Notes: generated from the letters alone by a model not told the origin. 64,000 bases of DNA from an uncultured Bacteroidales bacterium (GCA_963800585.1 CAWDBP010000008.1:262175-326174), one strand, 5' to 3'. Shown: positions 3,857 through 29,644, numbered from the stretch's first letter. Made by a program: numbers and translations.

Positions 3857-3925
3857 AATATGTGAATCATGTAATTTTTTTCTGAAATTATGTAACAATT
3901 CATAAAATGCAGAATAGCATCTTTG
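3857..3925 (+). promoter_or_regulatory. Island promoter motif, copy 1 (upstream of kaiC)
   Basis: AATATGTGAATCATGTAAT-N15-TGTAACA-N24-TTTG, with a CATCTTTG -7-like box at 3918-3925. Lies 92 nt upstream of the kaiC ATG. Confidence 0.6.
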
Positions 3926-4017
3926 TTTTGTAATTTGGGAGGTTTGACAGAAATGCCCATTTTATCGAAAATTTATAGTTCTGCTTTCACAAAGAATCCG
4001 AAATTTTAAAGTTAAAT

Positions 4018-5751
4018 ATGAAGAAAGAAAAAAGTAAACCAGTAACTAAAAATCTTCACAAGACACCAACAGGAATCCAGGGATTCGATGAAATAACTGG
4101 TGGTGGACTGCCAACAGGCAGACCAACACTCCTCTGTGGTGGTGCAGGATGCGGAAAGACGCTTTTTGGAATGGAGTTTCTTGTCAGGGGTGCAACACAG
4201 TTTAACGAACCAGGTGTGTTTATGTCATTCGAAGAAACGAATGAAGAATTGATCAAAAATGTTACTTCACTCGGTTTTGATCTGGAAGACCTTGTCAAAA
4301 ATAAAAAACTTTCACTTGACCATGTCCATATTGAACGCAGTGAAATAGAAGAAACCGGCGAATACGATCTGCAAGGTTTATTCATACGACTTGGTTATGC
4401 AATTGATTCTATCGGGGCCAAACGTGTTGTATTAGACACGATTGAGTCACTATTTGCAGGATTGCCAAACCAACTGATCTTACGCGCTGAACTGCGGCGT
4501 TTATTTCACTGGCTGAAAGATAAAGGCGTTACTGCAATCATAACAGGTGAACGTGGAGAAGAAACATTAACCCGGCAAGGTTTGGAAGAATATGTTTCAG
4601 ATTGTGTTATTATGCTCGACCACCGGGTAACCGATCAGACTTCTACACGTCGTTTACGGGTTGTCAAGTATCGTGGTTCAATGCACGGTACGAATGAGTA
4701 TCCATTTCTGATTGATGAAAATGGTTTTTCAATATTACCTATTACTTCATTAGGATTAAAACATAAAATATCGAATGAAAGGATCTCAAGTGGTATAACT
4801 GCACTTGATAAAATGCTTGAAGGAAAAGGTTATTTCCGCGGAAGCACAGTACTTGTTTCCGGTACTGCCGGAGTGGGGAAAACAAGCGTAGCAGCTCACT
4901 TTGCAGAAGCGGCATGCAAACGTGGTGAACGTGTTCTCTTTTTCTGTTTCGAAGAATCTCCGGAACAGTTAATGCGTAATATGCGTTCTATTGGTATAAA
5001 ATTAGAGACCTGGGTGCAGAAAGGACTATTACAATTTCATGCAATTCGTCCAACATTCTATGGCCTGGAAATGCATCTGGCTGTAACTCACAAAGCTGTT
5101 AATAGTTTCAAACCTCATATTGTCATCCTGGATCCGATAAATACCTTCGTCATTGGTGATAAAGATTACGAAGTAAAAATGATGTTAATGCGTATTGTCG
5201 ATTATCTTAAGTCGAATCAAATAACAGCATTGTTTACCAGCTTAACTGCAAACAACAGTGCTCTAGAGAGTACGGATGTTGCAATATCATCACTAATCGA
5301 TACGTGGTTATTACTTCGTGATATTGAATTAAGCGGTGAACGAAACAGGGGAATGTATGTTCTTAAATCACGCGGTATGGCTCACTCTAACCAAATCCGC
5401 GAATTCATTTTAACAAACCATGGCGTTGAATTACGTGAGGCTTATATCGGTGCAAGCGGAGTTTTAACGGGCTCAGCACGTGTTGCACAGGAAGCAAATG
5501 AAAATGCCGGATTGTTGATTCGTAAAAACGATATCGAACAAAAAAAACGTGAAATAGAACGAAAACGTAAAGCATTGGAAACTCAGATTGCTACTATGCA
5601 AATCGATTTTGAACTGGAAGAGGCTGAAGCTGTCAAAATGATTGAGACAGAAAAGGATACGATTAAACGACTGGAACAAGATAAAATAGAAATGGCGGAA
5701 AGCCGGAAAGCCGGCCTAAAAAAGATTATGACTAACAAGGTGAAAAAATAA
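4018..5751 (+). CDS. kaiC: Circadian-clock-type ATPase KaiC homologue (double RecA-like domain) with an extended C-terminal coiled-coil tail
   Basis: Two Walker A motifs (GGAGCGKT, GTAGVGKT), each followed by a paired-Glu catalytic motif (SFEETNEE, CFEESPEQ). STDVAISSLIDT aligns with the S. elongatus ITDSHISTITDT phosphosite segment. The last ~70 aa are charged and heptad-like. Confidence 0.9.
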   Translation: MKKEKSKPVTKNLHKTPTGIQGFDEITGGGLPTGRPTLLCGGAGCGKTLFGMEFLVRGATQFNEPGVFMSFEETNEELIKNVTSLGFDLEDLVKNKKLSLDHVHIERSEIEETGEYDLQGLFIRLGYAIDSIGAKRVVLDTIESLFAGLPNQLILRAELRRLFHWLKDKGVTAIITGERGEETLTRQGLEEYVSDCVIMLDHRVTDQTSTRRLRVVKYRGSMHGTNEYPFLIDENGFSILPITSLGLKHKISNERISSGITALDKMLEGKGYFRGSTVLVSGTAGVGKTSVAAHFAEAACKRGERVLFFCFEESPEQLMRNMRSIGIKLETWVQKGLLQFHAIRPTFYGLEMHLAVTHKAVNSFKPHIVILDPINTFVIGDKDYEVKMMLMRIVDYLKSNQITALFTSLTANNSALESTDVAISSLIDTWLLLRDIELSGERNRGMYVLKSRGMAHSNQIREFILTNHGVELREAYIGASGVLTGSARVAQEANENAGLLIRKNDIEQKKREIERKRKALETQIATMQIDFELEEAEAVKMIETEKDTIKRLEQDKIEMAESRKAGLKKIMTNKVKK

Positions 5752-5766
5752 TTAAAAGAATACCCG

Positions 5767-6108
5767 ATGAGACCAAAAAAAGAGAACTCAGGAAAAAGCA
5801 GTAAAGCAGAAAGACCGGTTAAAGCTTTAGATGATAAATGGATACTCCGATTATATGTTGCAGGTCAAACACCAAAAGCCCTCACTGCATTTACAAACCT
5901 TAAGAAGATATGTGAGGACCAATTAAAAGGTAAATACTCTATCGAAGTAATTGATCTTTTGATAAATCCACAATTAGGTGCCGAGGACCAGATTCTTGCC
6001 TTACCAACATTAGTCAGAAAATTACCGGTGCCCGTTAGAAAGATAATCGGCGATCTCTCAAATACAGAACGTGTTCTTGTTGGATTGGATTTATTGCCTG
6101 TCAGCTGA
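5767..6108 (+). CDS. kaiB: KaiB homologue, copy 1 (thioredoxin-like fold family)
   Basis: [24 protein letters not shown]...[34 protein letters not shown] matches the KaiB signature along its whole length. Has a ~25-aa basic N-terminal extension. Confidence 0.9.
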
Positions 6109-6138
6109 TTTATAAGTACACTGTTTATCAAAAATATT

Positions 6139-6486
6139 ATGAAAGAGAATAAATCAAAGAAAAAAAACTCAACAGAGAAATTCGATCTGAAAGTATCCGG
6201 ATTAAGCAAAGACAAATATATATTGCGTTTATATATAACCGGTGTAACGACCCGGTCAGTCCTGGCAATAACGAATCTGAAAAAGATTTGCGAAGAATAT
6301 CTTGAAGGACGATACGAATTGGAGGTGATCGACTTGTATCAAAAACCATGTCTTGCCAAAGATGAACAGATCATCGCAGCTCCGACCTTGATTAAAAAAC
6401 TGCCGCTTCCTTTCCGACGTATCATCGGAGATATGTCAAACAAGGAAAAAGTCCTTCTTGGATTGGATCTGAAAAGGATAGAGTGA
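6139..6486 (+). CDS. kaiB: KaiB homologue, copy 2 (diverged paralogue)
   Basis: [24 protein letters not shown]...[34 protein letters not shown]. Same architecture as copy 1. Confidence 0.9.
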
Positions 6487-6531
6487 CTTTGTTATTTACA
6501 GAACATTTAACCCGTTTGATTTGTAATACTG

Positions 6532-7251
6532 ATGTCCATGACCAAAACGATAGAACAACTCATAATTGAAAATGAGGAATTACGTTCCCGCCTGTCTGAA
6601 ACTGAAGAAATCCTTGTAGCAATCCGAAACGGAGAAATGGATGCTATTGTGGTTTCCGGAAAGAAAGGAGAACAAGTCTATTCGATCAGTTCTGCTGAAA
6701 CGCCATATCGTACTTTTGTAGAAGAGATGAATGAAGGAGCACTTACTCTTACTAAAGATGGAATTATTATCTATTGCAATAAAAAATTTGCTAAACTTGT
6801 AAACGACCCTATTGAACGTGTGATAGGTTCAGCCTTTAAGCACTTCCTCGCCCCGGGTGACCAATCAAAATTCAAGCACCTGCTTTCCCGTCTGACTAAG
6901 AAGAAGAGCGATGTCCTGATCATATCCTTAACCGGCTCATTGTTTCTGAAACTATCCTTTCTCCTTCTTCCTTCTTATCTGCAAGGTGATCATTGCATAG
7001 TTATAGCAACCGACATTTCAGCAATAAAGTTGGTAGAGAAACAACTTCTTGAACTACAACATTTATTGGAAAAGAAATTAGATGTCATTGAGCGCTTGCG
7101 ATTGCAACTTATTGATAAAAAGATTGATAATGAAGTTGAAATAACTAAAATAAAAAAGACAAATAAAGAACTGGTCAGGGAAATCACAAAACATAAACTA
7201 ATTGAAACAAAATTAAAGCATGAACTAAATCATAAGAAGGTAACCAATTGA
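6532..7251 (+). CDS. Stand-alone PAS-domain protein flanked by coiled coils (sensor-kinase-like N-terminus without DHp/ATPase domains)
   Basis: N-terminal EELRSRLSETEEILVAIRNGEMDAIVV motif followed by a PAS-like core (YRTFVEEMNEGALTLTKDGIIIYCNKKFAKLV...). The ~80-aa C-terminus is a K/E/L-rich coiled coil. No H-box or ATP-binding motifs seen. Confidence 0.7.
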   Translation: MSMTKTIEQLIIENEELRSRLSETEEILVAIRNGEMDAIVVSGKKGEQVYSISSAETPYRTFVEEMNEGALTLTKDGIIIYCNKKFAKLVNDPIERVIGSAFKHFLAPGDQSKFKHLLSRLTKKKSDVLIISLTGSLFLKLSFLLLPSYLQGDHCIVIATDISAIKLVEKQLLELQHLLEKKLDVIERLRLQLIDKKIDNEVEITKIKKTNKELVREITKHKLIETKLKHELNHKKVTN

Positions 7252-7264
7252 AAATGTAATATAA

Positions 7265-7750
7265 ATGAAAATAACTAAAAAGAAGAAAGTACTGATTGCA
7301 TTGGATTATAATCCAACTGCACAAAAAATTGCAGAAGTTGGGTTTTCATTTGCTAAAGCCATGGGCGCAGAAGTTATCCTGATGCATGTAATAACTGACC
7401 TGGTATATTATTCTTCATCGGAATTTTCTCCGATAATGGGATATACAGGCTACCTCGAGGCTGGTCCATTTCAATTAGACAATGCTGATGGACTGAAAAA
7501 TGCAGCTCAACATTTTCTTGATAAAACGAAACAACACCTTGGTGATAAAAACATCCAAACGTTGGTTAAAGATGGCGATTTTGCGGATTCAATATTAAAG
7601 ACAGCAAAAGAATTACATGCCGATATTATTGTCATGGGATCTCACAGCAGGAGATGGTTGGAAAATATAGTCATGGGAAGTGTTACGGAAGAAGTGTTAC
7701 ATCATACCTCTATTCCGCTTTTTATCATTCCAACAAAAAAACATAGCTAG
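7265..7750 (+). CDS. Universal stress protein (UspA family)
   Basis: 161 aa. KVLIALDYN..., ILMHV, and C-terminal GSHSRRWLENIVMGSVTEEVLHHTSIPLFIIP are typical USP motifs. Confidence 0.85.
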   Translation: MKITKKKKVLIALDYNPTAQKIAEVGFSFAKAMGAEVILMHVITDLVYYSSSEFSPIMGYTGYLEAGPFQLDNADGLKNAAQHFLDKTKQHLGDKNIQTLVKDGDFADSILKTAKELHADIIVMGSHSRRWLENIVMGSVTEEVLHHTSIPLFIIPTKKHS

Positions 7751-7821
7751 TCTGGATTTTAAAGCAGAACCTGTGTTGATAGTCTGCTGGAATTTGTAAG
7801 GAATCATTATCAACTGGTACA

Positions 7822-7890
7822 AATGTGGGAATAATGTAAATTATTGTTGCAGTTGTGTAACACGCGATGTAAAAAAGGTGCCGAACTTTG
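7822..7890 (+). promoter_or_regulatory. Island promoter motif, copy 2 (upstream of the acidic protein/OYE unit)
   Basis: AATGTGGGAATAATGTAAA-N15-TGTAACAC-N24-TTTG (GAACTTTG box). Lies 86 nt upstream of the ATG at 7977. Confidence 0.6.
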
Positions 7891-7976
7891 TTTTATTGTG
7901 AAAATTCAATTACAACGGTAAAATTCATGATGTATGAAAATACAGTTTCAATATTCTCTTTCTAAAGTTAAGGCAT

Positions 7977-8336
7977 ATGAAAGATAAAGGTGATAATAAT
8001 AAGCTGCCTGTTTGGAAGGCAGGGGACAAGAAGAAAGACAATCTTCAGGGGTATCCATTATATCCTGCCAGCGAAGATGTTTATAATGAATCTCATATTA
8101 AAAAAAATATAGATCCTGAAGATGTTTCCCGAAAAAAAGATTCGATTGAGAAATACGAAGGTGAAAAAGATAATGAGAAAGATTTTATGGATGATGTCTC
8201 AGGCAGTGATTTGGATGTTCCTGGCTCAGAATTGGATGATAATCAGGAGAATATAGGGAGTGAGGATGAGGAGAATAATTATTACAGTATTGGTGGAGAC
8301 GATCATGAAGACCTCGATGAGGATAAAGGAGATTGA
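7977..8336 (+). CDS. Highly acidic (D/E-rich) hypothetical protein
   Basis: 119-aa ORF directly downstream of motif copy 2. Low-complexity acidic C-terminal half. No recognisable family. Confidence 0.5.
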   Translation: MKDKGDNNKLPVWKAGDKKKDNLQGYPLYPASEDVYNESHIKKNIDPEDVSRKKDSIEKYEGEKDNEKDFMDDVSGSDLDVPGSELDDNQENIGSEDEENNYYSIGGDDHEDLDEDKGD

Positions 8337-8337
8337 C

Positions 8338-9444
8338 ATGCATCAAACTGAACATATGAAAGATCTAAAATTATTTACACCAACAATGGTTGGAACTGTC
8401 GGAGTGAAAAATCGTATCGTCATGTCGCCAATGACAAGATGCAGGGCGATTGGAAATATGCCAAATGAACTGATGGCAGAATATTACAAGCAACGTTCCG
8501 GAGCCGGTTTGATTTTAACGGAAGGTACATCTCCATCGCCCAATGGACTCGGTTATGCACGGATACCAGGAATTTTTAACCAACAGCAAGTGGCAGGCTG
8601 GAAAATGACAACCTTGGCTGTTCACAAAGGTGGTGGAAAAATATTTGTTCAACTTATGCATACTGGAAGGATAAGCCATTCCCTCAATATGCCTGAAGGA
8701 TCTCAAATACTAGCGCCTTCGGCGGTAAAAGCTGCTGGACAGATGTGGACCGACGCAAAAATGTTACAGGATTTTCCGGTTCCAAAAGAGATGAGTACCG
8801 AAGATCTTCTGCATACTAAAACAGAATTTGTTAACGCAGCATTAAATGCTATTGATGCCGGGTTTGATGGTGTGGAATTGCATGGGGCAAACGGTTATCT
8901 GCTCGAAGAGTTCCTTTCACCAGTCAGCAATATCCGGAATGATAATTATGGCGGGAGTATTGAAAACCGTTGCAAGTTTGTTCTTGAAGTAGTAATTGCA
9001 GTAGCTGAAACCATTGGTAAGGGGAAGACCGGAATTCGTTTATCTCCTTATGGTGTGGCTAGTGATATGCCATATTACCCCGAGATCGACACTACATATC
9101 TATACCTATCGGAACAAATAAACCGACTAGGAATAGCTTACATCCATCTTGTAGATCATTCTGCAATGGGAGCCCCCGTGGTACCGATAGAACTTAAGAA
9201 ACGCATCCGGGATGTTTTCCAAAATACCATAATTCTCTCTGGTGGTTATGACTTGCAAAGGGCAGAAGCCGATATTGAAAGCGGATTGGGTGATCTCATC
9301 GCATTCGGTCGTCCGTTTATCAACAATCCCGATTTTGTTGAAAGGTTGAAAAATGACTCGACTTTATCAACCGATCTTCATATGGATTTATTTTATACCT
9401 CGGATGAAAAAGGATATACCGATTATCCGGTTTATAAAGCCTGA
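8338..9444 (+). CDS. Old-Yellow-Enzyme family NADH:flavin oxidoreductase (alkene reductase)
   Basis: IVMSPMTRCRA, QLMHTGR, GFDGVELHGANGYLLEEFL and FGRPFINNPDF motifs. I place the start at the ATG at 8338, because the 8260 start in the ORF track overlaps the upstream gene. Confidence 0.85.
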   Translation: MHQTEHMKDLKLFTPTMVGTVGVKNRIVMSPMTRCRAIGNMPNELMAEYYKQRSGAGLILTEGTSPSPNGLGYARIPGIFNQQQVAGWKMTTLAVHKGGGKIFVQLMHTGRISHSLNMPEGSQILAPSAVKAAGQMWTDAKMLQDFPVPKEMSTEDLLHTKTEFVNAALNAIDAGFDGVELHGANGYLLEEFLSPVSNIRNDNYGGSIENRCKFVLEVVIAVAETIGKGKTGIRLSPYGVASDMPYYPEIDTTYLYLSEQINRLGIAYIHLVDHSAMGAPVVPIELKKRIRDVFQNTIILSGGYDLQRAEADIESGLGDLIAFGRPFINNPDFVERLKNDSTLSTDLHMDLFYTSDEKGYTDYPVYKA

Positions 9445-9460
9445 TCAATACAGTTCAATA

Positions 9461-9529
9461 AATGTAGGAATTATGTAACTGATTTTAATAGTTGTGTAAC
9501 ATTTTTTATAGTGATTGATCGTACTTTTA
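9461..9529 (+). promoter_or_regulatory. Island promoter motif, copy 3 (upstream of a small membrane protein)
   Basis: AATGTAGGAATTATGTAAC-N15-TGTAACAT-N24-TTTA; the -7-like box is TACTTTTA at 9522-9529. Confidence 0.55.
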
Positions 9530-9590
9530 CCCCTTTGTCTGTCTACCGGCGACAATTGAAAAAATAGTATTCATTTAAAAATTTAAAGCT

Positions 9591-9752
9591 ATGGGAAGGT
9601 TGTTATTGATTATTGGGCTAGTACTGGTTGTCCTCTGGTTGCTTGGGCTATTTGCATTTCAGTGGCACTCACCACTGGTTCATGTGCTGATTATAATTGG
9701 TGTTATCATGATCATCTTTGATCTTTTAAACAGCCGCCGGAATTGGTGGTGA
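9591..9752 (+). CDS. Small (53-aa) two-helix membrane protein, lmo0937-like; below the ORF-track length cutoff
   Basis: ATG at 9591, TGA at 9750-9752. Hand translation: MGRLLLIIGLVLVVLWLLGLFAFQWHSPLVHVLIIIGVIMIIFDLLNSRRNWW. Sits 61 nt downstream of motif copy 3. Confidence 0.6.
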   Translation: MGRLLLIIGLVLVVLWLLGLFAFQWHSPLVHVLIIIGVIMIIFDLLNSRRNWW

Positions 9753-9784
9753 TTGCTGTAAATTGTAAACTTTCTGAATTTTAC

Positions 9785-9803
9785 ACAGGATTATATATCC
9801 TGT
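9785..9803 (+). terminator. Perfect 7-bp hairpin (ACAGGAT-tatat-ATCCTGT) after the small membrane protein gene
   Basis: Inverted repeat read directly. No clear T-run follows, so terminator function is tentative. Confidence 0.3.
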
Positions 9804-9932
9804 TCAATACAGAACCCTAGTATTGGAGTTTAGGTATTGGGTATAAGATAGTAATAAACGGATTGGATCCTTTATAACTGGACTCGATATTAAGGTTTCA
9901 TGAAATTTTCAAACGCACGAATTTAAAGAAAA

Positions 9933-10274
9933 ATGAAAATCATAATTAACAACAGCAGAAGAATATCTGCAATTCAGGAAGAATTCAGTAAAATGTTTCC
10001 GGGTTTGATCCTTGCTTTCTATGCTAAACCAAGTCATCCCGGTGCTGCTCCTTCGACAAAACTAATCAGGCATAGCGGTAAATCATTGCAGGATTGCAGA
10101 GCAATAAGCAATGAAGGTGCAATTGAAATTCTTCCTTCTATGAATATTTCGGATGTAAAAGAAAATTTCAGGGATGTTTATGGATTATCCGTCGAAATAT
10201 TTCGTAAAGGAGGAGATGGATCGAATGAAACCCCAGTCAGCGATAATATGACCCTTGGAGAAATCCATCCCTGA
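9933..10274 (+). CDS. Hypothetical protein (113 aa)
   Basis: Intact ORF in an otherwise empty interval. No family recognised and no island motif directly upstream. Confidence 0.45.
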   Translation: MKIIINNSRRISAIQEEFSKMFPGLILAFYAKPSHPGAAPSTKLIRHSGKSLQDCRAISNEGAIEILPSMNISDVKENFRDVYGLSVEIFRKGGDGSNETPVSDNMTLGEIHP

Positions 10275-10332
10275 TCCACCCCGGATTAAGTCTGAACTTC
10301 ATTGCTGTATATCAATTTCCTGATATTAAGGA

Positions 10333-10401
10333 AATGTGTGAATGATGTAACTATTGGTTATAGTTGTGTAACATTTAATGTAAGCAATGTGACGACCTTT
10401 G
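10333..10401 (+). promoter_or_regulatory. Island promoter motif, copy 4 (upstream of the DUF3494 protein)
   Basis: AATGTGTGAATGATGTAAC-N15-TGTAACAT-N24-TTTG (GACCTTTG box). Lies 41 nt upstream of the ATG. Confidence 0.65.
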
Positions 10402-10442
10402 TATAGATGTGAAAATCCTTTCACGAATTAATTTGAATTAAC

Positions 10443-12065
10443 ATGAAAACAATTTTATTCAAAGCATTAACTGCAATTATGCTGCTCTTTATACCTGAGC
10501 TGAATTTTGCACAAGCTCCTCCATTAGGGGTTGCTGCTAATTTCGTCCTCTTTTCAACAGTAGGGGCAGTAACCAATACTGGAATTTCGCAGGTAACAGG
10601 CAATGTTGGCACGAACAGCGGTTCCAGTACCGGATTCGGAAATGTGAATGGTGTGATGTGCGACAATGATGCTGCAAGCGCCCAATGTGCAGCAGATTTG
10701 CTGATTGCATATAACCAGTTGAACAATACGACTGCGACTTTCTTTCCATCGGTTTTGCTTGGAAACGGACAGATTTTTACTGCAGGTGTCTACTTAGTAT
10801 CCGGGGCAGCAACATTGAACTCAGATCTTATTATAGATGCACAGGGTGATGCTGGTGCGGTATTTATTATTCAGATACAAGGTTCATTTTCCACAAATGC
10901 TAATTCTAAAATCAACTTGATCAATGGAGCCCTGGCATGTAATGTTTTTTGGAAGGTGGAAGGTTTGGTAAGCATGGCTTCCGGAACCACCATGAGGGGA
11001 ACAGTTATCGCTAACAACGCTGCAATTAATATGAACACTGGCGACACGCTTGAAGGTAGGGCACTTTCTACTACCGGGGCTGTTACTGTTGATGGAGTAT
11101 TGGCTTATACGCCCATCGGTTGTGGAAGTCCTGTTCTTAATGGACCAGTAGCTCCTGCGCTTGCTTCCACCGAATGTTATGCGTTATTCTCTGGTGACGG
11201 CGCAGTTTCAAACAGCGGCATTACTTATGTCACGGGTGATGTTGGAACAAATGTAGGTTTAACAACCGGCTTCGATTCGCTATTAGTAACAGGTAAGATT
11301 CACCCCATTCCTGATGCGTCTACAGCGCAATGCGCAGCTGATTTGAATAATGTCTACAATTACCTGAACACAATTCCTTATGATATTGAGTTGCTGTATC
11401 CTGCACAATTTGGCAACAACCTGGTTCTTACGCCCCATACTTACCTCCTGAACGCGGCTACAGTATTTACTGATACACTTTTCCTCAATGCAGAAGGTAA
11501 TGCAGATGCCGTATTTGTTATCCAAATATTCGGGGCCCTTTCAACCAGCACTTATTCAAAAGTCAGCTTGATTAATGGAACGCAGTCAAAGAATGTGTTC
11601 TGGAAGATTGAAGGTGCAGTGAGTATAAATAACTATTCTGATTTCTGCGGAACGATAGTTTGTAATAATGGAGCTTTAGGAGCATTGAATACAGGAGTTA
11701 AACTGGATGGCAGAGCGCTCACCACAATTGGTGCTTTAACGACAACTGCAATGACTGCCACAATGCCTCTCGGGTGCAACATTACTGGCATTTCTGGTCT
11801 TAATACCAGGAATACGGATGATGCAGTTACGATAGCTCCAAACCCATTTAGCACGTCAACTAAAATTATCCTGAATGATGCTGCACTGATTAATAACTGC
11901 GAATTGACAATATACAGTGTTGTTGGAACAGAAGTGATGCGTATAGCTATCACTCAATTATTGACCACGCTTTATACAGGGAATCTTCCTTCAGGAATCT
12001 ATTTCTATAAAGTGACTTCGCAAAATAGAACAATTCAATCTCGTAAATTGATTTCACAACAATAA
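10443..12065 (+). CDS. Secreted protein with two tandem DUF3494 (ice-binding-like) domains and a T9SS type A C-terminal sorting domain
   Basis: Signal peptide, then LGVAANFVLFSTVGAVTNTG...GNVGT...AQCAADL...DAQGDAGAVFIIQI...ACNVFWKVEG...GRALSTTGAVT, repeated a second time. The C-terminus has APNPFSTST...GIYFYKV...KLI. Confidence 0.8.
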   Translation: MKTILFKALTAIMLLFIPELNFAQAPPLGVAANFVLFSTVGAVTNTGISQVTGNVGTNSGSSTGFGNVNGVMCDNDAASAQCAADLLIAYNQLNNTTATFFPSVLLGNGQIFTAGVYLVSGAATLNSDLIIDAQGDAGAVFIIQIQGSFSTNANSKINLINGALACNVFWKVEGLVSMASGTTMRGTVIANNAAINMNTGDTLEGRALSTTGAVTVDGVLAYTPIGCGSPVLNGPVAPALASTECYALFSGDGAVSNSGITYVTGDVGTNVGLTTGFDSLLVTGKIHPIPDASTAQCAADLNNVYNYLNTIPYDIELLYPAQFGNNLVLTPHTYLLNAATVFTDTLFLNAEGNADAVFVIQIFGALSTSTYSKVSLINGTQSKNVFWKIEGAVSINNYSDFCGTIVCNNGALGALNTGVKLDGRALTTIGALTTTAMTATMPLGCNITGISGLNTRNTDDAVTIAPNPFSTSTKIILNDAALINNCELTIYSVVGTEVMRIAITQLLTTLYTGNLPSGIYFYKVTSQNRTIQSRKLISQQ

Positions 12066-12347: not shown

Positions 12348-12362
12348 AAAGTAATCCTTAGC

Positions 12363-12430
12363 AAGTGTGAATGATGTAACTTATTATTGCAGTTATGTAA
12401 CACTTTTCAAGCTTTATAGACGCATCTTTG
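12363..12430 (+). promoter_or_regulatory. Island promoter motif, copy 5
   Basis: AAGTGTGAATGATGTAAC-N15-TGTAACAC-N24-TTTG (CATCTTTG box). One nt shorter in the distal box. Confidence 0.65.
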
Positions 12431-12466
12431 TATTACGGAAATTCATATAATATTAAAATCAATAAA

Positions 12467-12919
12467 ATGAAAAATAGAAGAATGAACATCCTGACAAAAA
12501 AAATTGTTTTCCTTTTTTTTGCAATTATGATTCTGCTTACAGTTGATTCATATGCTAAAAAAATTGTCTTTTTATCTTCCTCAATTACTCCGGCGGCCCG
12601 GGGTTATGTCAAGGTAACAAGAGACAAAAACTTGAATTATGATATTCAGGTACAAGTATTAGATCTGGCTGAGGTTAACAGGCTGCAACCATCGAGACAT
12701 GCCTATGTGGTTTGGATTCTAACAGATAAAGAAATAATAAAAAATCTTGGGCGATTAAACAGTCAGCCAAACCAAGGTTCAAAACAATTAAAGGCATCTT
12801 TTGAGACTTTATCCTCATCCAAACCAATTAAAATATTTATTACTGCCGAAGATGAAACTAGCGCTCAAAGTCCGAGTGAGCAAGTCATATTAACAACTGA
12901 CAGATTTTTATTGGATTGA
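12467..12919 (+). CDS. Secreted hypothetical protein (~150 aa)
   Basis: The ORF-track start (12428, TTG) overlaps the predicted -7 box. The ATG at 12467 gives MKNRRMNILTKKIVFLFFAIMILLTVDSYA, a signal peptide. Confidence 0.5.
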   Translation: MKNRRMNILTKKIVFLFFAIMILLTVDSYAKKIVFLSSSITPAARGYVKVTRDKNLNYDIQVQVLDLAEVNRLQPSRHAYVVWILTDKEIIKNLGRLNSQPNQGSKQLKASFETLSSSKPIKIFITAEDETSAQSPSEQVILTTDRFLLD

Positions 12920-13131: not shown

Positions 13132-13200
13132 AATGTGTGAATTATGTAACTTATTCCTGAAGTTTTGTAACACAAATCCTGATTAATGCAACCACCTTTG
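13132..13200 (+). promoter_or_regulatory. Island promoter motif, copy 6 (upstream of the mlaE-like operon)
   Basis: AATGTGTGAATTATGTAAC-N15-TGTAACAC-N24-TTTG (CACCTTTG box). Lies 43 nt upstream of the ATG at 13244. Confidence 0.65.
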
Positions 13201-13243: not shown

Positions 13244-14131
13244 ATGTTTTTTTTAGAAACGGATGGAATCAACCGGTATTTTATGACACCTTTTAATCCT
13301 GTTATCAAGGTAATCCCGAAGATTAAGGGCGGGGCAACAAAGCATGCCATCAGGCTTACTGAAAAAACCATTGAGAAAACTGTAAAAGCAAACAGTTTTT
13401 TGACGGAGTTGGCCAATTTTTTCTTATTCATAAGGCAGACAATTACAGAAACTTTTTCCAAGGACTTTGAATTCAGGGAATTTTTACGCCAGTGTTTTCA
13501 AATTGGAAATAAATCCTTACCGCTTATTTCGGTAACAGGAATCATCATGGGCCTGGTGCTGACCATTCAATCGCGACCTGCCCTGGCGCATTTCGGAGCA
13601 GTTTCCATGTTGCCAGGAATGGTAGCAATATCGCTTATCCGTGAAATGGGACCAGTGATAACGGCCTTGATATGTGCAGGAAAGATTGGTTCAGGAATGG
13701 GTGCAGAGTTAGGCTCAATGAGGGTAACAGAGCAGATTGATGCCATGGAAGTATCTTCTACCAATCCAATAAAATTTTTAATAGTTACAAGGGTATTGGC
13801 AGCAACACTCATGATTCCCTTGTTGGTACTTTATGCAGACGGACTTGGGTTATTGGGCGGTTGGGCAGGAACCAATATCAAAGGAGATGTGACTTTTGTT
13901 CTGTTTTTCTCCCAGGCTTTCAGCCAGATTCGTTTTATGGATTTTTTACCGGCTCTTATTAAAACGTTCTTTTTTGGTGCTGTTATTGGGTTAGTTGGAT
14001 GCTATAAAGGATATACTGCAGGCAGGGGAACAGAAAGTGTTGGGATTGCTGCAAACTCTGCAGTGGTGCTGGCCTCCTTGTTAGTGATATTTGTAGATCT
14101 GATTGCGGTGCAAATAACCGATTTACTGTAA
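13244..14131 (+). CDS. mlaE: MlaE-family ABC transporter permease
   Basis: Multi-TM protein with ...GKIGSGMGAELGSMRVTEQIDAMEV..., typical of MlaE/YrbE/Ttg2B permeases. Followed by ATPase and MCE genes. Confidence 0.8.
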   Translation: MFFLETDGINRYFMTPFNPVIKVIPKIKGGATKHAIRLTEKTIEKTVKANSFLTELANFFLFIRQTITETFSKDFEFREFLRQCFQIGNKSLPLISVTGIIMGLVLTIQSRPALAHFGAVSMLPGMVAISLIREMGPVITALICAGKIGSGMGAELGSMRVTEQIDAMEVSSTNPIKFLIVTRVLAATLMIPLLVLYADGLGLLGGWAGTNIKGDVTFVLFFSQAFSQIRFMDFLPALIKTFFFGAVIGLVGCYKGYTAGRGTESVGIAANSAVVLASLLVIFVDLIAVQITDLL

Positions 14132-14147
14132 TTGTGAATTATAAATT

Positions 14148-14924
14148 ATGGATGTTTCCCAAATACGAACGATTGTTCCGGCAAAAGCAACAAGCGACAA
14201 ACAGGTTATTGAGATTAATAACCTGAGGAAAGGATTTTACCAGCAGGAAGTATTAAAAAATGTGTCGTTGCAACTTTTTAATGGCGAAAACCTGGTGGTG
14301 CTTGGCAAATCCGGTTCAGGGAAATCCGTCCTGATAAAATGTATTGTTCGTTTATTAGATCCCGACGAAGGTACAATCAATGTCCTGGGCGAAGATGTCA
14401 GTAAATTAAATAGGGATGGGTTAGGAGAGATGAGAAAGAAAATTGGTTTTCTTTTTCAGAGTGGGGCACTGTACGATTCCATGACAGTAAAGCAAAACCT
14501 GGAGTTTCCATTGAGAAGGATAAAAAAAAGTATGACCCAAAAAGAAATAGACGGTAAAATAAATGAAGCGTTAGAACATGTTGGGTTATCGGACGCCTTA
14601 AATAAAATGCCTTCGCAACTTTCCGGCGGAATGCGTAAGCGGATCAGCCTTGCCCGAACCATTGTCGTCGATCCCATGATCATGTTGTATGATGAACCAA
14701 CGACCGGGCTTGACCCGGTGACATCCGATGAAATAAGTTCACTCATCAATGAAGTACAAAAAACATATAAAACTTCTTCCCTTATTATTACGCATGATAT
14801 TGAGTGTGCCCGTGCAACTGCAAACCGGGTTATCATGTTGCATGACGGTGAAGTTTACCTGGAAGGAACAGTGGAAGAGTTTGAAAAGTCGACGGACGTG
14901 TTAATCAAATCATTCTTTAAATAA
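14148..14924 (+). CDS. mlaF: ABC transporter ATP-binding protein (MlaF-like)
   Basis: Walker A GKSGSGKS, signature LSGGMRKR, Walker B MLYDEPTTGLD. Confidence 0.85.
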   Translation: MDVSQIRTIVPAKATSDKQVIEINNLRKGFYQQEVLKNVSLQLFNGENLVVLGKSGSGKSVLIKCIVRLLDPDEGTINVLGEDVSKLNRDGLGEMRKKIGFLFQSGALYDSMTVKQNLEFPLRRIKKSMTQKEIDGKINEALEHVGLSDALNKMPSQLSGGMRKRISLARTIVVDPMIMLYDEPTTGLDPVTSDEISSLINEVQKTYKTSSLIITHDIECARATANRVIMLHDGEVYLEGTVEEFEKSTDVLIKSFFK

Positions 14925-14960
14925 TCATTTTACAGATCTCAGAATTAATACTATAAACAT

Positions 14961-15713
14961 ATGGACACGCACACACAGAAATTCAAAATACGGTTGGGGC
15001 TGTTTATCGCCGGAGGATTGGCTCTCTTTGTCATTGCCATTTTCTTCATAGGGAAACAAAAGAATTTATTTAACCCTGTTTTTACACTTACTACGACTTT
15101 TTATAATGTAAGCGGGTTACAGGTCGGAAATAATGTCCGTTTCTCGGGAATCAATATAGGCACGGTCGATAACATTAAAATAATAAATGATTCAACGGTG
15201 AAGGTTGATATGTTAGTTCGAAAAAATATTCAGAAATTTATTAGAACGGATTGTGAAGCAGGTATTGGTTCCTCAGGGCTTATTGGCGACCGCGTTTTAG
15301 TTATTTCGCAAGGCAATAGTGATGCTCCTGTCGTAAAAGACGGGCAACCAATTGGTTCCCAAGAACCGGTCGAAATGGATGCCATCATGGCAAGCCTGCG
15401 TGTAACAGCATATAATGCTGAAATTGTTTCAGACGAATTGGCGCAGATTATGATTAAGGTTAATAGTGGAAAGGGAACCATCGGCAGATTAATTCAGGAT
15501 ACAGCAATTGCAGAAAATCTGAGTCAGACCATGGTGAATATCAGAAAAAGCAGTAAAGGGCTTAATGAAAATATGAATGCCGCCAAGCATAATTTCCTTC
15601 TAAAAGGTTATTTTAACAAGAAGGCAAAAGCAGAGCAGGCAACGAAAGACAGCCTTGAAAAAGTGAAAGCTAAAGAACAAAAAAGAATTGATAAGGAGAA
15701 CAAGAAAAAATGA
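14961..15713 (+). CDS. mlaD: MlaD/MCE-domain substrate-binding protein
   Basis: N-terminal TM anchor, then an MCE-like core (GLQVGNNVRFSGINIGTVDNI...) and a K/E-rich tail. Confidence 0.75.
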   Translation: MDTHTQKFKIRLGLFIAGGLALFVIAIFFIGKQKNLFNPVFTLTTTFYNVSGLQVGNNVRFSGINIGTVDNIKIINDSTVKVDMLVRKNIQKFIRTDCEAGIGSSGLIGDRVLVISQGNSDAPVVKDGQPIGSQEPVEMDAIMASLRVTAYNAEIVSDELAQIMIKVNSGKGTIGRLIQDTAIAENLSQTMVNIRKSSKGLNENMNAAKHNFLLKGYFNKKAKAEQATKDSLEKVKAKEQKRIDKENKKK

Positions 15714-20329: not shown

Positions 20330-20365
20330 ACATTTTACGTTTTTTGTGAAGAAATTATCACTTTA

Positions 20366-20434
20366 CAAAGTTGCACATCTTTATATGGATTTGTGTTACA
20401 CAACAATTGAAATAAGTTACATTATTCCCACATT
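20366..20434 (-). promoter_or_regulatory. Island promoter motif, copy 7 (drives the 20329->17333 minus-strand unit)
   Basis: Reverse complement reads AATGTGGGAATAATGTAAC-N15-TGTAACAC-N24-TTTG (CAACTTTGTAAAGTGA). Lies 36 nt upstream of the ATG. Confidence 0.65.
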
Positions 20435-20441
20435 TGAAGAT

Positions 20442-22883: not shown

Positions 22884-22902
22884 TTACCCTGATTTCTGCG
22901 TT

Positions 22903-23823: not shown

Positions 23824-23911
23824 GATGCAAAATATTTATTTCAAGTAGTTTACTTCATTTCTATCGTTCATCATTTAGCTGATATTAATTTATGAAGTGA
23901 TTCTCACTTTA

Positions 23912-23980
23912 CAAAGGTGCGTCGATTGTTCCCGGAATGCCTTACACAATTGCAGAAAAGAGTTACATTATTCACACATT
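23912..23980 (-). promoter_or_regulatory. Island promoter motif, copy 8 (drives PAP2 + the 804-aa gene)
   Basis: Reverse complement reads AATGTGTGAATAATGTAAC-N15-TGTAAGGC-N24-TTTG (CACCTTTGTAAAGTGA). Confidence 0.6.
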
Positions 23981-24026
23981 TTCAGCCTTGTTGGGTTTTT
24001 GTGTTTATCATGTGATCACCTTCCCG

Positions 24027-24095
24027 AATGTGTGAAATATGTAAGATAAATTTGAATTTATGTAACGCTTCTTCCTTAAATGGTACTCAACTTTG
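24027..24095 (+). promoter_or_regulatory. Island promoter motif, copy 9 (divergent partner of copy 8)
   Basis: AATGTGTGAAATATGTAAG-N15-TGTAACGC-N24-TTTG (CAACTTTG box at 24088-24095). Confidence 0.6.
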
Positions 24096-24127
24096 TAACG
24101 GTAATATTCACTGAAAAAACAGTCAGA

Positions 24128-26137: not shown

Positions 26138-26221
26138 ATCTTAAATGGTCGAGAAGGTCACATAATCATGTATTCTAATCTTTGTTATGTTTTTATGCTT
26201 AATCATCCGGTCATCTTTTCA

Positions 26222-26290
26222 AATGTGTGAATTATATAAACATTTTCCATAATGATGTAAAGGTTTCTGAAATTGCCGGGTTTACCTTTG
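26222..26290 (+). promoter_or_regulatory. Island promoter motif, copy 10 (degenerate repeat boxes)
   Basis: AATGTGTGAATTATATAAA-N15-TGTAAAGG-N24-TTTG (TACCTTTG box). Same 69-nt geometry. Confidence 0.5.
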
Positions 26291-26333
26291 TACAGCTAAA
26301 ACATATTCAATCTTAAATTTAATCCTCAAAAGT

Positions 26334-26594
26334 ATGGACACAAGTTTATTTCTTGTTATCACAGCGATTTTGAGTTTAATTGCAATTATTGTCTTTTTCA
26401 TAATGGCAATTAACCTGGGCAATATTCGTAAAAATGTACAATCAATACACAAAATGTTATCTGGTTGGGCAAAGGAAACAGGTTATGCAAAGGAAACAGG
26501 TTCCGGATCGACATACATCTGTAAAAATTGTAAGAAGAAATATGAAGGAACATTGGCTGTTTGTCCTCATTGTGGGAATCCCAATACCTATTGA
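26334..26594 (+). CDS. Small membrane-anchored zinc-ribbon protein
   Basis: N-terminal TM helix and a C-terminal CKNC...CPHC pair. Confidence 0.5.
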   Translation: MDTSLFLVITAILSLIAIIVFFIMAINLGNIRKNVQSIHKMLSGWAKETGYAKETGSGSTYICKNCKKKYEGTLAVCPHCGNPNTY

Positions 26595-26696
26595 AATTTT
26601 TTCCTCAATTTTAAAGATGTACACGAATTGATGAGCAATTGATGCTTTCGTAAGAATATAGTTTATTTATTTTAAAACCTTAAAATCATTCAAATC

Positions 26697-27146
26697 ATGA
26701 AAAAATTATTTGTACTAATGTCAGCATTCTTGTTGATATGTTTAATGGGTTTTACCCAAAAACTATCAACTGAAAAGGTTCCAGCCCCGGTAAAAAAAGC
26801 CTTTGCAACAAAATTTCCTGCTGCTACCGATGCGAAATTTGAGTTGATTAGTAATTACTATAAAGTCGTCTTTAATGACAAAGGAGTAAATACATCCGCT
26901 AATTATTCTCCGATTGGAAAATGGCTTATAACCGAAACTACAATTTCAGAATCAGATCTGCCAAAAGAAGTTTCTGCTTCTCTTGCCAAGGACTTTGCAG
27001 ATTTCAAGATTTCAGCAGTTACCAAAGTAGAGTCACCGGACAAGCCATTATTTTATACGATGGACTTGCAGAAGGATAAAGAAGGGTATAATGCCCAGTT
27101 CTCTCCCAAAGGAGATGTGTTGAAGAAGACGCCATTGAAGAAATAG
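26697..27146 (+). CDS. PepSY-like (DUF2874-type) secreted protein
   Basis: Signal peptide, then VPAPVKKAFATKFPAATDAKFE... and a second similar half (LPKEVSASLAKDFADFKI). Confidence 0.55.
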   Translation: MKKLFVLMSAFLLICLMGFTQKLSTEKVPAPVKKAFATKFPAATDAKFELISNYYKVVFNDKGVNTSANYSPIGKWLITETTISESDLPKEVSASLAKDFADFKISAVTKVESPDKPLFYTMDLQKDKEGYNAQFSPKGDVLKKTPLKK

Positions 27147-27177
27147 AAGGATTAGAACGAAAAGGATTAATTTTGAG

Positions 27178-27210
27178 AAGTTGGTGGCTCACCCCCCCCA
27201 ACTTTTTTTA
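27178..27210 (+). terminator. Rho-independent terminator
   Basis: AAGTTGG-N13-CCAACTT stem followed by a T7 run. Confidence 0.6.
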
Positions 27211-27248
27211 TGGTTTTCTGCCAGTGTCTATATTCAAGCCATAAATAA

Positions 27249-28520
27249 ATGAACGGTACAAAAAAGATTTCATATAAACTTCTTCATTTCTGGAAAATAC
27301 TTGGACCCGGACTCATTACAGGTGCAAGTGATGATGACCCTTCGGGAATTGCAACCTATTCCCAGGCTGGTGCGGGGTATGGACTTTCGACACTATGGAC
27401 TGCGCTTCTGACATTTCCACTCATGGCCGCAATCCAGGAGATGTGTGCAAGAATTGGTATGATTACCGCACATGGATTGGCAGGAACGCTTAAGACCCAT
27501 TATTCAAAACCTTTATTATACTTGATGTTGCTGTTCAGTTTTCCTGCAATTGTAATGAACATTGGTGCTGACATTGCAGGAATGGGTGCAGTAGGGAACC
27601 TGTTAATCCCTTCAATTCATCCAACCTTCTTCGCCATCGGTTTCACTATCCTGCTTTTAGTATTAATCGTATTTTTACCTTATCAAAAGATTGCTTCTGT
27701 TCTGAAATACCTCTGCATCGTCCTTTTAGTCTATTTTATTGTGCCGTTTTTGTACAAACAAAATTTACTGGCAATAATAAAATCCACTTTTATTCCCACT
27801 CTAAAATTCAACAAAGACTTTATCAGCATTCTAGTTGCTATCCTGGGTACAACCATTTCACCTTATCTTTTCTTCTGGCAGGCAACGATGGAAGTAGAAG
27901 ATATAAAGCAAAAGAAAAAGCATCTCGTAGTAAACAAAAGAATTCTGCACGAGATGAAGCAGGATGTCGATTTCGGAATGCTGTTTTCAAATGTTACCAT
28001 GTTCTTTATCATTCTTACTACGGGAACGGTTTTATTTAATGGAGGAATACATAAGATTGATACCGTTGAACAAGCCGCCCAGGCATTGAAACCATTGGCT
28101 GGGAATTTTGCTTATTTGCTTTTTGCCCTGGGTATCATCGGCACAGGACTCTTAGCTATACCCGTATTATGTGGATCGCTTTCTTATATTGTCACCGAGA
28201 CATTCGGATGGGAAGAAGGGTTGGATAAAAAATTTAACCAGGCAAAAGCATTTTATGTAATCGTTGCCATCTCATTGGTACTGGGATTATCGTTGAATTA
28301 CATCGGTATTTCACCCATTAAAGCGCTGATCTATTCAGCCATTCTTTATGGATTAACTGCCCCGGTTTTAATTGCCATTATTCTTCATATTTCCAATAAC
28401 AAGAAAATAATGGGGGAGAATACAAATACAAAAACGTCCAACATTCTTGGTGCTGCAACATTAGTTGTTATGACCGTTGCTGCTATAATATTAATTTACT
28501 TACAGATTAAGCAAATTTAG
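27249..28520 (+). CDS. Nramp-family divalent metal cation transporter
   Basis: GPGLITGASDDDPSGIATYSQAGA near the N-terminus and about 11 TM segments. Confidence 0.75.
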   Translation: MNGTKKISYKLLHFWKILGPGLITGASDDDPSGIATYSQAGAGYGLSTLWTALLTFPLMAAIQEMCARIGMITAHGLAGTLKTHYSKPLLYLMLLFSFPAIVMNIGADIAGMGAVGNLLIPSIHPTFFAIGFTILLLVLIVFLPYQKIASVLKYLCIVLLVYFIVPFLYKQNLLAIIKSTFIPTLKFNKDFISILVAILGTTISPYLFFWQATMEVEDIKQKKKHLVVNKRILHEMKQDVDFGMLFSNVTMFFIILTTGTVLFNGGIHKIDTVEQAAQALKPLAGNFAYLLFALGIIGTGLLAIPVLCGSLSYIVTETFGWEEGLDKKFNQAKAFYVIVAISLVLGLSLNYIGISPIKALIYSAILYGLTAPVLIAIILHISNNKKIMGENTNTKTSNILGAATLVVMTVAAIILIYLQIKQI

Positions 28521-28557
28521 ATCTGAATAATGTCTCACACGGATATCATTATTGAAT

Positions 28558-29436
28558 TTATTCTTCTGCTAACCATTTGTAATCGGGCTTTGCGGGTATG
28601 AAATCCTTAATGTCTGCTTCTGGTGAATTGCTTTCCATAAAAAGGATCTTGGTGTCGGAGATCTTATACATGGTCCGGTATAATCCGGAACTTGTCTGAA
28701 TGGGTTTCTCATTGGCCGACATTATAACCGCGTTCGATTTTATGATAAAAGAATTCAGGGATGTCTCATCAGGGAAAGTGATCCTTGCAAGTATTCCTGC
28801 ATAATCAGGAGTACTAATATTCATTGTATACAAATGAAAGCTGAGATTCTCGAACATATCGGACCAAACTGGCAATCCTCTCTTTAATCCAAGAGGTCCC
28901 TTAAAATAGTGAAGGGTATTTGTAAATGGAGCTACTTTCTCACTCTGGGTCAGGGCAGGAGCATACCATATTTCCTGGGGATTTTTATCAATAAACAGTT
29001 TCACTAATTGTTCACAAAGTGCTTGACCTGACTGAGTGCCTGTCTTGTTACTTGCATAAATAAAGAATGACCCATGGACCGCTACAACGTGGTAAAGTGA
29101 TATACAGGAAAAAGAACCAAAGAGATTCATTTGGTCGCAGTGGGAAATTGACACTGAATAGATACCAAAGGCAGAAGGAGCATTTCCCATGATATAAACT
29201 TCAAGAGCGGCTTGTTCAATCCCCAGCAGGTATTCATTGACAAATATTTTTTTTAATCCATATTCGAGGAATAAATCTGCACTATTGCCAAGATAGTCAT
29301 TCATTTTTCCTTCAGCAAAATTATTGCTTGAAAGGATCCTGATTCCCTGGATATCCGTTTCTGAGATCTGTTGAATATTCTGCGCTAACCCACTTAAAGA
29401 GCAGATGATCAATGGAATGTAAAGGTATTTTTTCAT
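28558..29436 (-). CDS. Secreted hypothetical protein (292 aa)
   Basis: Signal peptide MKKYLYIPLIICSLSGLAQ. No family recognised. Motif copy 11 lies directly upstream. Confidence 0.5.
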   Translation of the reverse strand: MKKYLYIPLIICSLSGLAQNIQQISETDIQGIRILSSNNFAEGKMNDYLGNSADLFLEYGLKKIFVNEYLLGIEQAALEVYIMGNAPSAFGIYSVSISHCDQMNLFGSFSCISLYHVVAVHGSFFIYASNKTGTQSGQALCEQLVKLFIDKNPQEIWYAPALTQSEKVAPFTNTLHYFKGPLGLKRGLPVWSDMFENLSFHLYTMNISTPDYAGILARITFPDETSLNSFIIKSNAVIMSANEKPIQTSSGLYRTMYKISDTKILFMESNSPEADIKDFIPAKPDYKWLAEE

Positions 29437-29462
29437 ACATTTTATTTGAAAGTATCACTTTA

Positions 29463-29530
29463 CAAAAGTGCATACATTTAAACAAATAGCGTTACAAAAC
29501 AATGAAAATAAGTTACATCATTCACACATT
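29463..29530 (-). promoter_or_regulatory. Island promoter motif, copy 11
   Basis: Reverse complement reads AATGTGTGAATGATGTAAC-N15-TGTAACGC-N23-TTTG (CACTTTTGTAAAGTGA). Lies 26 nt upstream of the ATG. Confidence 0.65.
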
Positions 29531-29575
29531 ATCAGATTTGTTTTGTTTTTTTGTCAATTACCAGGTCATCTCTCA

Positions 29576-29644
29576 AATGTGTGAATTATGTAAGATAAAA
29601 TTGAATTTATGTAACACAAATAACTAAAATCGTAGTCATTTTTG
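29576..29644 (+). promoter_or_regulatory. Island promoter motif, copy 12 (divergent partner of copy 11)
   Basis: AATGTGTGAATTATGTAAG-N15-TGTAACAC-N24-TTTG. The inter-box spacer is almost identical to that of copy 9. Confidence 0.6.

Follow-up and report, generated by a model that had tools for sequence, protein, structure and literature searches.

The DNA analysed here is a stretch of 64 kb from an uncultured Bacteroidales bacterium (GCA_963800585.1, CAWDBP010000008.1:262175-326174), called the window below; element coordinates are counted from its first letter. It contains 12 copies of a composite, promoter-like element of 69 nt, located in front of the genes that lie between 4018 and 35401. 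An interpretation made earlier from the DNA alone (the sequence-only reading) had reported these 12 copies, and direct inspection of the window located all of them with unchanged strands and coordinates.

The element and its putative target genes

Each copy comprises a distal unit, a proximal unit, and a 3' box, called the -7 box here. In copy 1 (3857-3925, plus strand) these occupy 3857-3875, 3878-3896, and 3918-3925, the -7 box reads CATCTTTG, and the putative target is the unit kaiC-kaiB-kaiB-PAS-Usp (4018-7750). Copy 2 (7822-7890, plus; -7 box GAACTTTG) faces the genes for a 119-aa protein without known function and an OYE-type flavin oxidoreductase (7977-9444). The first gene behind copy 3 (9461-9529, plus; -7 box TACTTTTA) is easily overlooked. 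It encodes a 53-aa DUF5670 membrane protein (9591-9752, plus), and a 113-aa open reading frame (ORF) at 9933-10274 is probably a further target; eight DUF5670 genes carry the element in other genomes. Copy 4 (10333-10401, plus) precedes the gene for an ice-binding-like protein with a sorting tail of the type IX secretion system (T9SS) (10443-12065), copy 5 (12362-12430, plus) that for a 150-aa secreted protein without known function (12467-12919), and copy 6 (13132-13200, plus) the genes MlaE-MlaF-MlaD-DUF3943 (13244-17302). On the minus strand, copy 7 (20366-20434) would drive DUF6600, a 127-aa ORF, and PAP2 (20329 down to 17333), and copy 8 (23912-23980) PAP2 together with a DUF748/AsmA-like gene (23823 down to 20469). 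Copy 8 is divergent with copy 9 (24027-24095, plus), which lies upstream of a gene for a secreted protein of about 660 aa without known function, with a probable TTG start at 24128 or 24152 and its end at 26137. The TGTAAC-type boxes of the two units (B boxes) are weakest in copy 10 (26222-26290, plus; ATATAA and TGTAAA), whose putative targets encode an 86-aa zinc-ribbon protein, a PepSY-like protein, and Nramp (26334-28520). Copy 11 (29463-29530, minus), a 68-nt variant with 1 nt less between the proximal and -7 boxes, is directed at DUF6599 (29436 down to 28558). It is divergent with copy 12 (29576-29644, plus), behind which the genes for a B12-radical-SAM protein, an LtaS-type sulfatase, a diacylglycerol (DAG) kinase, and MscS are found (29734-35401). 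Orthologues of this radical SAM gene elsewhere carry the element as well, often just downstream of an AraC-type gene.

A search of the 64 kb with the pattern TGKGAATNATGTAA-N16-TGTAA, allowing at most two mismatches, returned exactly these 12 sites, compared with 0.01 sites expected from 100 dinucleotide-preserving shuffles. In a leave-one-out test with a position weight matrix (PWM), 11 copies scored 34-70 bits and the best score in shuffled sequence was about 8. The twelfth copy, 29463-29530, was missed by the rigid matrix solely owing to the 1-nt deletion between its proximal box and its 3' box. Neither the core-pattern scan nor the PWM scan of the 64 kb yielded further copies. Aligned on the 3' TTTG, the window copies have the consensus aAATGTGtGAATnATGTAAc-N15-TGTAACa-N~21-cAnCTTTGta. 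The rigid length described before was borne out but the count was not, as 11 copies rather than 10 measure 69 nt (the copy at 12363 being counted from 12362) and only one, 29463-29530, measures 68 nt. All 12 copies are intergenic and each is aimed at a gene, as had been noted, with 25-92 nt between the TTTG and the start codon. The 12 putative promoters account for every gene between 4018 and 35401, which agrees with the reported coverage from kaiC to the end of MscS.

The KaiC protein was located on two metagenome contigs (JGI 3300050025 and Logan ERR11571142) that reach 10 kb to the left of the window. This left extension contains three extra copies, at L119 599-668 (minus), 727-796 (plus), and 3881-3950 (plus), which precede an OmpA-family gene, the gene for a 958-aa ice-binding protein, and, directly, an RND (resistance-nodulation-division) membrane-fusion gene. 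Because the element stands directly before this last gene, whose operon ends at window position 3785, the RND pump belongs to the same set. The earlier statement that no copy precedes the RND genes is thus correct inside the window but not for the genome. With the three additional copies, the island has 15 or more copies and a length of at least 41 kb.

Two side observations concern this region. The kaiC and RND promoters share a near-identical transcribed leader, TAATTTGGGAGnTTTGACAnAAATnCCCATTTTATC (window 3930-3966; L119 3955-3990), with a predicted hairpin of -8.4 kcal/mol for kaiC and -13.4 kcal/mol for RND (z = -3.6). The G+C content is slightly lower in 4001-32000 (0.37-0.41) than in 32001-64000 (0.40-0.46).

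Architecture and occurrence across Bacteroidota

An exact-pattern scan of 185,579 species genomes, one genome for each species, gave at least 118 loci, which were taken as 8-kb blocks; all counts of motif loci given here and below are among the matches listed. Named Bacteroidota lineages account for 111 of these 118 loci, and the other 7 are unclassified bins or probable mis-binned contigs. The lineages include Bacteroidales, Marinilabiliales-type families (e.g. Prolixibacteraceae), Chitinophagales, Cytophagales, Flavobacteriales, Saprospiraceae, and Lentimicrobiaceae. Two of the matching contigs, L092 and L110, were binned as "Candidatus Woesearchaeota archaeon"; the former shows the architecture in full and probably represents a mis-binned contig of Bacteroidota, and the latter has no -7 box and seems to have matched by chance.

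The 144 exact matches from other genomes were used to gauge the positions that the search pattern had left free. These positions are also conserved, namely AA(t)G upstream of the distal box and a spacer that runs from T-rich to A-rich and ends in AaTT. The 3' box lies at one fixed distance, with A in 126 and TT in 140 of the 144 matches, and T or C before the A. A softened PWM found 230 copies in the 118 loci and none in shuffled controls. The spacing was tested independently in loci that had been selected via the AraC-type protein described below and not via the motif, with the sites anchored on the distal box alone. The proximal box was exactly 16 nt from the distal box in 88 of 111 sites and never 15 or 17 nt, and the -7 box had an offset of 44 in 73 sites and of 43 in 9 others. 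The rigid architecture characterises the phylum and is not peculiar to the island.

The sigma-A promoters of Bacteroidota have TTTG at -33 and TAnnTTTG at -7, with the -7 element a few bases upstream of the start site. The 3' box of the element, (t/c)AnCTTTG, fits this -7 consensus at its fixed distance, also in the protein-anchored set, and its earlier assignment as a -7 element is therefore retained. The -33 TTTG, expected some 19-21 nt before the -7 box, is missing in 214 of the 230 copies and present in 16, and TGTAAC is found there instead. The 3' end of the proximal TGTAAC lies 22-23 nt before the A of the -7 box; in position, counted from a predicted start, this is the -33 slot. Because the proximal TGTAAC fills the slot of the absent -33 TTTG, an activator-dependent, class-II-like promoter is the best reading, as the sequence-only reading had proposed. 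The first gene after the island (35614, a BNR repeat protein with a T9SS tail) is served by an ordinary promoter at 35479-35507 (plus) with both sigma-A elements, TTTG-N17-TATCTTTG.

Upstream of the -7 box the 230 copies contain two 19-bp units with a 21-bp period, and positions 4-14 and 25-35 both read AATnRTGTAAC. The distal unit, AAtGTGTGAATnRTGTAAC, has an extra conserved 5' extension, AAtGTGTG; the proximal unit is T-rich and then reads AaTTnTGTAAC. The element had been described before as three boxes on one face of the helix, and a 21-bp direct repeat of AATnRTGTAAC with a 5' extension describes it better. It had also been stated that the boxes are kept and the spacers mostly differ. This holds for the boxes but not for the spacer between them, which is T-rich, then A-rich, and then AaTT. 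An ATG-start ORF of at least 50 aa follows within 250 nt in 201 of the 230 copies, and the median distance from TTTG to ATG is 39 nt. We consider it very probable that the copies are co-regulated sigma-A promoters that depend on a factor.

The downstream proteins of these 201 copies were clustered into families. Ice-binding-like proteins form the commonest family (15 members), and OmpA lipoproteins with a glycine zipper (12-16) and a 61-aa protein (11) also recur. Further recurrent families are DUF5670 and other small membrane proteins, small cupins, YtxH, Usp, MlaEFD, B12-radical SAM, DUF6600, PAP2, and KaiC. Among the genes of the window, the orthologues of the ice-binding, DUF6600, PAP2, B12-radical-SAM, KaiC, MlaE, and DUF5670 genes carry the element in other Bacteroidota, a point that the sequence-only reading had suggested checking. 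Recurrent nearby genes encode a P-type ATPase, a PerM-type transporter, and a GT4 glycosyltransferase with a GH130-like enzyme. By analogy, this gene content resembles the general stress regulons of other phyla, and, judged from predicted functions, it agrees with the earlier proposal that stress and envelope functions are controlled. The Kai operon is a rare member, with 2 of about 200 downstream genes. The former picture of a 31-kb island headed by the Kai genes was given up, as the architecture spans Bacteroidota orders, the Kai operon is rare, and the island exceeds the window.

A candidate regulator and its rivals

All ORFs in the 118 motif loci were clustered, an AraC-type protein was searched for by tblastn, and 80 metagenome loci anchored on this protein were added. 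In the motif loci, histidine kinases and receivers form the most enriched cluster (62 members in 32 loci). The AraC-type protein of about 185 aa has 28 members in 23 loci by clustering and was found in about 25 of the 118 loci by tblastn, with 47-100% identity. Besides this protein, the enriched clusters contain no DNA-binding family, and no other one recurs. Eight copies of its gene stand directly behind the element in these loci, and a recurrent operon consists of the element, the AraC-type gene, a PAS-HisKA-HATPase-REC hybrid kinase (950-1040 aa), and a 143-aa stand-alone receiver. In the reciprocal test, 64 of the 80 protein-anchored metagenome loci carry at least one element, and the element is immediately before the AraC-type gene in 42 of the 71 loci with enough upstream DNA. 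The protein-anchored loci give the same consensus, with the B boxes relaxed to RT(G/A)(T/C)AAC. Upstream of one AraC-type orthologue (L145 640-734), a 21-bp unit, AATTGTGTAACTTTTATAAGT, occurs in 4.5 tandem copies with 95% matches.

The C-terminal half of the protein matches Pfam HTH_18 with 57.5 bits (cutoff 33.6) and HTH_AraC with 27.6 bits (cutoff 26.6). An AlphaFold model from a 38-sequence alignment (predicted local distance difference test score, pLDDT, 79.5) predicts an N-terminal domain of beta-alpha-beta-beta-alpha-beta order, followed by a long linker helix and a C-terminal domain of seven helices. In Foldseek searches, the C-terminal domain matched the DNA-binding domains of AraT, AdpA, SoxS, MarA, and AraC with target-normalised template modelling (TM) scores of 0.73-0.83. 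The match of the N-terminal domain to heavy-metal-associated (HMA) folds of the CopZ/Atx1 type was weaker (E 0.06-0.14, target-normalised TM about 0.65-0.72). The HMA metal motif is degenerate, with an invariant (M)VSxRCK in which one cysteine is left. NCBIfam has no specific model for this AraC-HMA protein, and sequence searches of NCBIfam and the PDB gave generic AraC-domain matches only.

Small stand-alone cupin genes (112-139 aa) often adjoin the regulator gene and stand behind the element (L046, L048, L056, L061, L075, L085, L099, and L111). One cupin type has weak similarity to the AraC ligand-binding domain, and the small cupins may act as a separate sensor partner. As a side observation, the adjacent hybrid kinase has about 10 tandem, coiled-coil-like repeats of about 22 residues (…ANKELAFQNxEKEKRAAEL…) between two PAS domains; the repeat-bearing kinase is at L023 3167-6007, and similar genes are found at L020, L039, L054, and L062.

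No candidate regulator was found among the island ORFs with Pfam, in agreement with the earlier proposal that the regulator acts in trans. Among about 50 window ORFs searched with Pfam, the only candidates were two proteins encoded outside the island, a HigA-type helix-turn-helix (HTH) antitoxin and a sigma factor of the primary, SigA-like type. The antitoxin, of the HTH_3 type and paired with a HigB-like toxin (44052-44643, minus), is the sole HTH protein found besides the sigma factor. The sigma gene, the only one in the window, encodes 287 aa (56070-56933, plus) and lies behind two ORFs of an HtrA-type protease. The trypsin-like and PDZ parts of this protease are in separate ORFs, 55037-55426 and 55469-56059 (plus), of which the first begins mid-domain. 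A frameshift, a sequencing error, or a pseudogene could account for this arrangement.

From its strong genomic associations and predicted fold, the AraC-HMA protein is the probable factor that reads the element. Several points weigh against this assignment. The AraC-type gene is absent from the 64-kb window and from the 10 kb to the left of it, and its presence in the source organism is assumed. A gene whose own promoter bears the element may belong to the regulon without being its regulator. About three-quarters of the motif loci, each 8 kb long, lack an AraC-type gene, which is expected for a trans-acting factor but does not prove that there is one. The N-terminal domain differs from the dimerisation and sensor domains known in the AraC family, so that we infer binding as a dimer. 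Finally, a palindrome downstream of the element, found in roughly 15% of copies, is not accounted for by the AraC model.

This palindrome of 16 bp, GTGAAAATTnATTCAC, starts 4-7 nt after the TTTG in about 30 of the 230 copies and occurs before many gene families. In the window it is found as GTGAAAATCCTTTCAC at 10409-10424 (plus), 7 nt after the TTTG and near the predicted start site. Related palindromes lie at 20346-20361 (minus) and, in weaker form, at 7898-7913 (plus) and 23892-23907 (minus). Its left half resembles the distal GTGAAT box, and it may represent either an operator in the DNA or a stem in the 5' RNA. The conserved centre favours a protein operator. The symmetric variants GTGG..CCAC, GTGAT..ATCAC, and GTAA..TTAC fit an RNA stem or lineage-specific half-site preferences. 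The predicted RNA stems reach only -4 to -5 kcal/mol, which is no better than in shuffles, and the global pairing signal is weak. Operators of CRP/FNR are inverted repeats of the form TGTGA-N6-TCACA or TTGAT-N4-ATCAA. A CRP/FNR operator was rejected, because the palindrome GTGAA-N6-TTCAC corresponds to TGTGA-N8-TCACA and thus differs in spacing, and no CRP/FNR gene recurred in the related loci.

Three other explanations of the element were considered. It is scarcely conceivable that it is no promoter at all and represents a dispersed repeat, the end of a mobile element, or an RNA or DNA hairpin motif. Many near-identical copies are indeed clustered in one region, and a hairpin between the TGTAAC boxes looked convincing in the 12 window copies. 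Across the 230 copies, however, there was no excess complementarity (best value 0.11) or mutual information (best value at most 0.14 bit) in the spacer, and the apparent inverted repeat arises because a T-rich run is followed by an A-rich run and then by AaTT. Rfam 15 gave no match over the window at gathering thresholds, and at E<=1 over 3500-30000 nothing overlapped the element, which speaks against a known RNA family. The boxes are kept while flanks and spacers diverge, orientation and start-codon distance are strict, and orthologous genes keep the element across orders; this explanation is largely refuted, and the earlier view of the elements as promoters, and not repeats or RNA, stands. 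Promoters of a dedicated alternative sigma factor, with TGTAAC as the -35 and the 3' box as the -10, are very improbable. Extracytoplasmic function (ECF) sigma factors recognise a -35 with an AAC core, which TGTAAC resembles, and a CGT-type -10 box 16-17 nt downstream, and the absence of the housekeeping -33 TTTG would also suit such a factor. The 3' box, however, has the sigma-A -7 consensus and not that of a CGT-type -10. In the 144 exact matches, the information at each of the positions 36-56, between the proximal and the -7 box, is below 0.35 bit, and no CGT is conserved. Since there is almost no information in this interval, no ECF-type -10 is present. The gaCGc that had been noticed before the last box and would have been such a -10 is not conserved in the large sets and was rejected. 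A second conserved unit 21 bp upstream would be needless for a sigma factor, and no sigma gene is among the enriched clusters, the only one in the window being of the primary type. The earlier suggestion of a dedicated sigma factor was accordingly dropped.

Somewhat more room must be left for the explanation that the element is an activator or repressor site of another trans-acting protein, of the OmpR, LytTR, or LuxR type or unannotated, with the AraC gene as just one of its targets, but we regard it as unlikely. Sites of LytTR and OmpR/PhoB regulators are direct repeats with a period of about 21 or 10-11 bp, so the 21-bp phasing fits them as well; the kinase and receiver cluster is the most enriched near the element, and the AraC gene is missing from most motif loci. 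However, no response regulator with a DNA-binding output recurs in 198 related loci, although one could be encoded outside them, and the receiver that does recur is the stand-alone REC protein. An OmpR/PhoB- or LytTR-type reader, as suggested by the sequence-only reading, is therefore less probable than one of the AraC/XylS type. The AraC/XylS-type family is the only DNA-binding one enriched, and the element is present on 42 of 71 promoters of its own genes. The two-HTH DNA-binding domains of the AraC family read bipartite sites of about 17-20 bp, and the bipartite 19-bp unit would fit the domain of this kind predicted for the AraC-HMA protein.

Putative mechanism and relation to known systems

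In the mechanism that we propose, each 69-nt element would be an activator-dependent promoter that the housekeeping sigma-A reads via the -7 box. Two subunits of the AraC-HMA protein would occupy the two units on one helix face, and the proximal subunit would touch RNA polymerase where region 4 of sigma normally reads the -33. Activation rather than repression is presumed. The AraC-HMA protein would also activate its own gene through the element (positive autoregulation), and the PAS hybrid kinase and the single-domain receiver may set its activity and probably supply the signal. In the source genome the factor would be encoded outside the window and act in trans on the 15 or more promoters grouped in the island. 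The set switched on in this way would include KaiCB, Usp, ice-binding proteins, an OmpA-type lipoprotein, Mla, PAP2, an AsmA-like protein, Nramp, RND efflux, and the radical SAM-LtaS-DAG kinase-MscS unit.

The two-subunit model with a substituted -33 contact was chosen because the geometry of the element equals that of AraC at I1-I2 and of XylS at Pm. These sites are tandem direct repeats with a 21-bp period, in which the proximal repeat overlaps the -35 of a promoter without a good -35. Both systems and the element have two half-sites of about 17-19 bp, the proximal one in the -35 slot. They also share activator dependence, which is presumed for the element, and a two-HTH domain, the fold predicted for the candidate. 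Unlike AraC and XylS sites, the element uses the -7/-33 grammar of Bacteroidota, and the candidate has an HMA-like N terminus instead of a cupin sugar-binding domain. The candidate is also co-operonic with a hybrid kinase and a receiver, and would serve not a single catabolic operon but dozens of units with stress and envelope functions. A second likeness is to MarA, SoxS, and Rob, small AraC-family proteins with a dispersed stress regulon that includes an RND pump and with an asymmetric, bipartite box of about 20 bp at fixed distances; the predicted fold of the candidate matches MarA and SoxS complexes. However, MarA and SoxS act as monomers on one marbox, which may have either orientation and lie at any of several distances, whereas the element has two units in one orientation and at essentially one distance, and the candidate has an extra N-terminal domain.

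In gene content the set is similar to the regulons of Bacillus sigma-B, alphaproteobacterial PhyR-NepR-EcfG, and E. coli RpoS, with Usp, YtxH, OmpA/OsmY-like lipoproteins, small membrane proteins, efflux, and glycosyltransferases of the compatible-solute type. Common to these systems and to the one described here are also a single promoter signature over many units and input from a PAS histidine kinase. The known systems use an alternative sigma factor, whereas the element system, known here from its gene content, appears to use an activator on sigma-A promoters.

A full-text literature search, with most subscription journals outside its coverage, gave no description of the motif, of the AraC subfamily, or of a Bacteroidota regulon of this kind, and in the same search no master stress regulator was described for Bacteroidota. 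Unspecified AraC-family genes are induced in biofilms of Flavobacterium psychrophilum (PMC5787105). Mechanisms of this kind are well known; what appears to be new is the regulator subfamily with its partners, the regulon, and the use on -7/-33 promoters, and novelty is thus probable.

More broadly, and with rather less confidence than in the parts above, the system can be pictured as a phylum-wide general stress or dormancy response of Bacteroidota. In this tentative picture, an AraC-HMA activator with a single invariant cysteine would be under the control of a kinase and a receiver, possibly with cupins as the sensor of a "split AraC". The activator would replace the -33 contact at dozens of promoters, and KaiC-KaiB would be one output.

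If the proposed mechanism is correct, one short signature predicts a co-regulated stress and envelope regulon in environmental Bacteroidota of at least five orders. It would provide a candidate master regulator and sensor kinase, so that a general stress response of Bacteroidota becomes testable, and would exemplify an activator that replaces the -33 contact in the unusual promoter grammar of the phylum. The element would also provide Bacteroidota, for which genetic tools are scarce, with a compact and portable promoter part that is probably inducible. DUF5670, DUF6600, DUF6599, DUF3943, and several unnamed small proteins would gain a functional context, and KaiCB homologues, ice-binding proteins, and lipid-remodelling enzymes would be tied into one programme.

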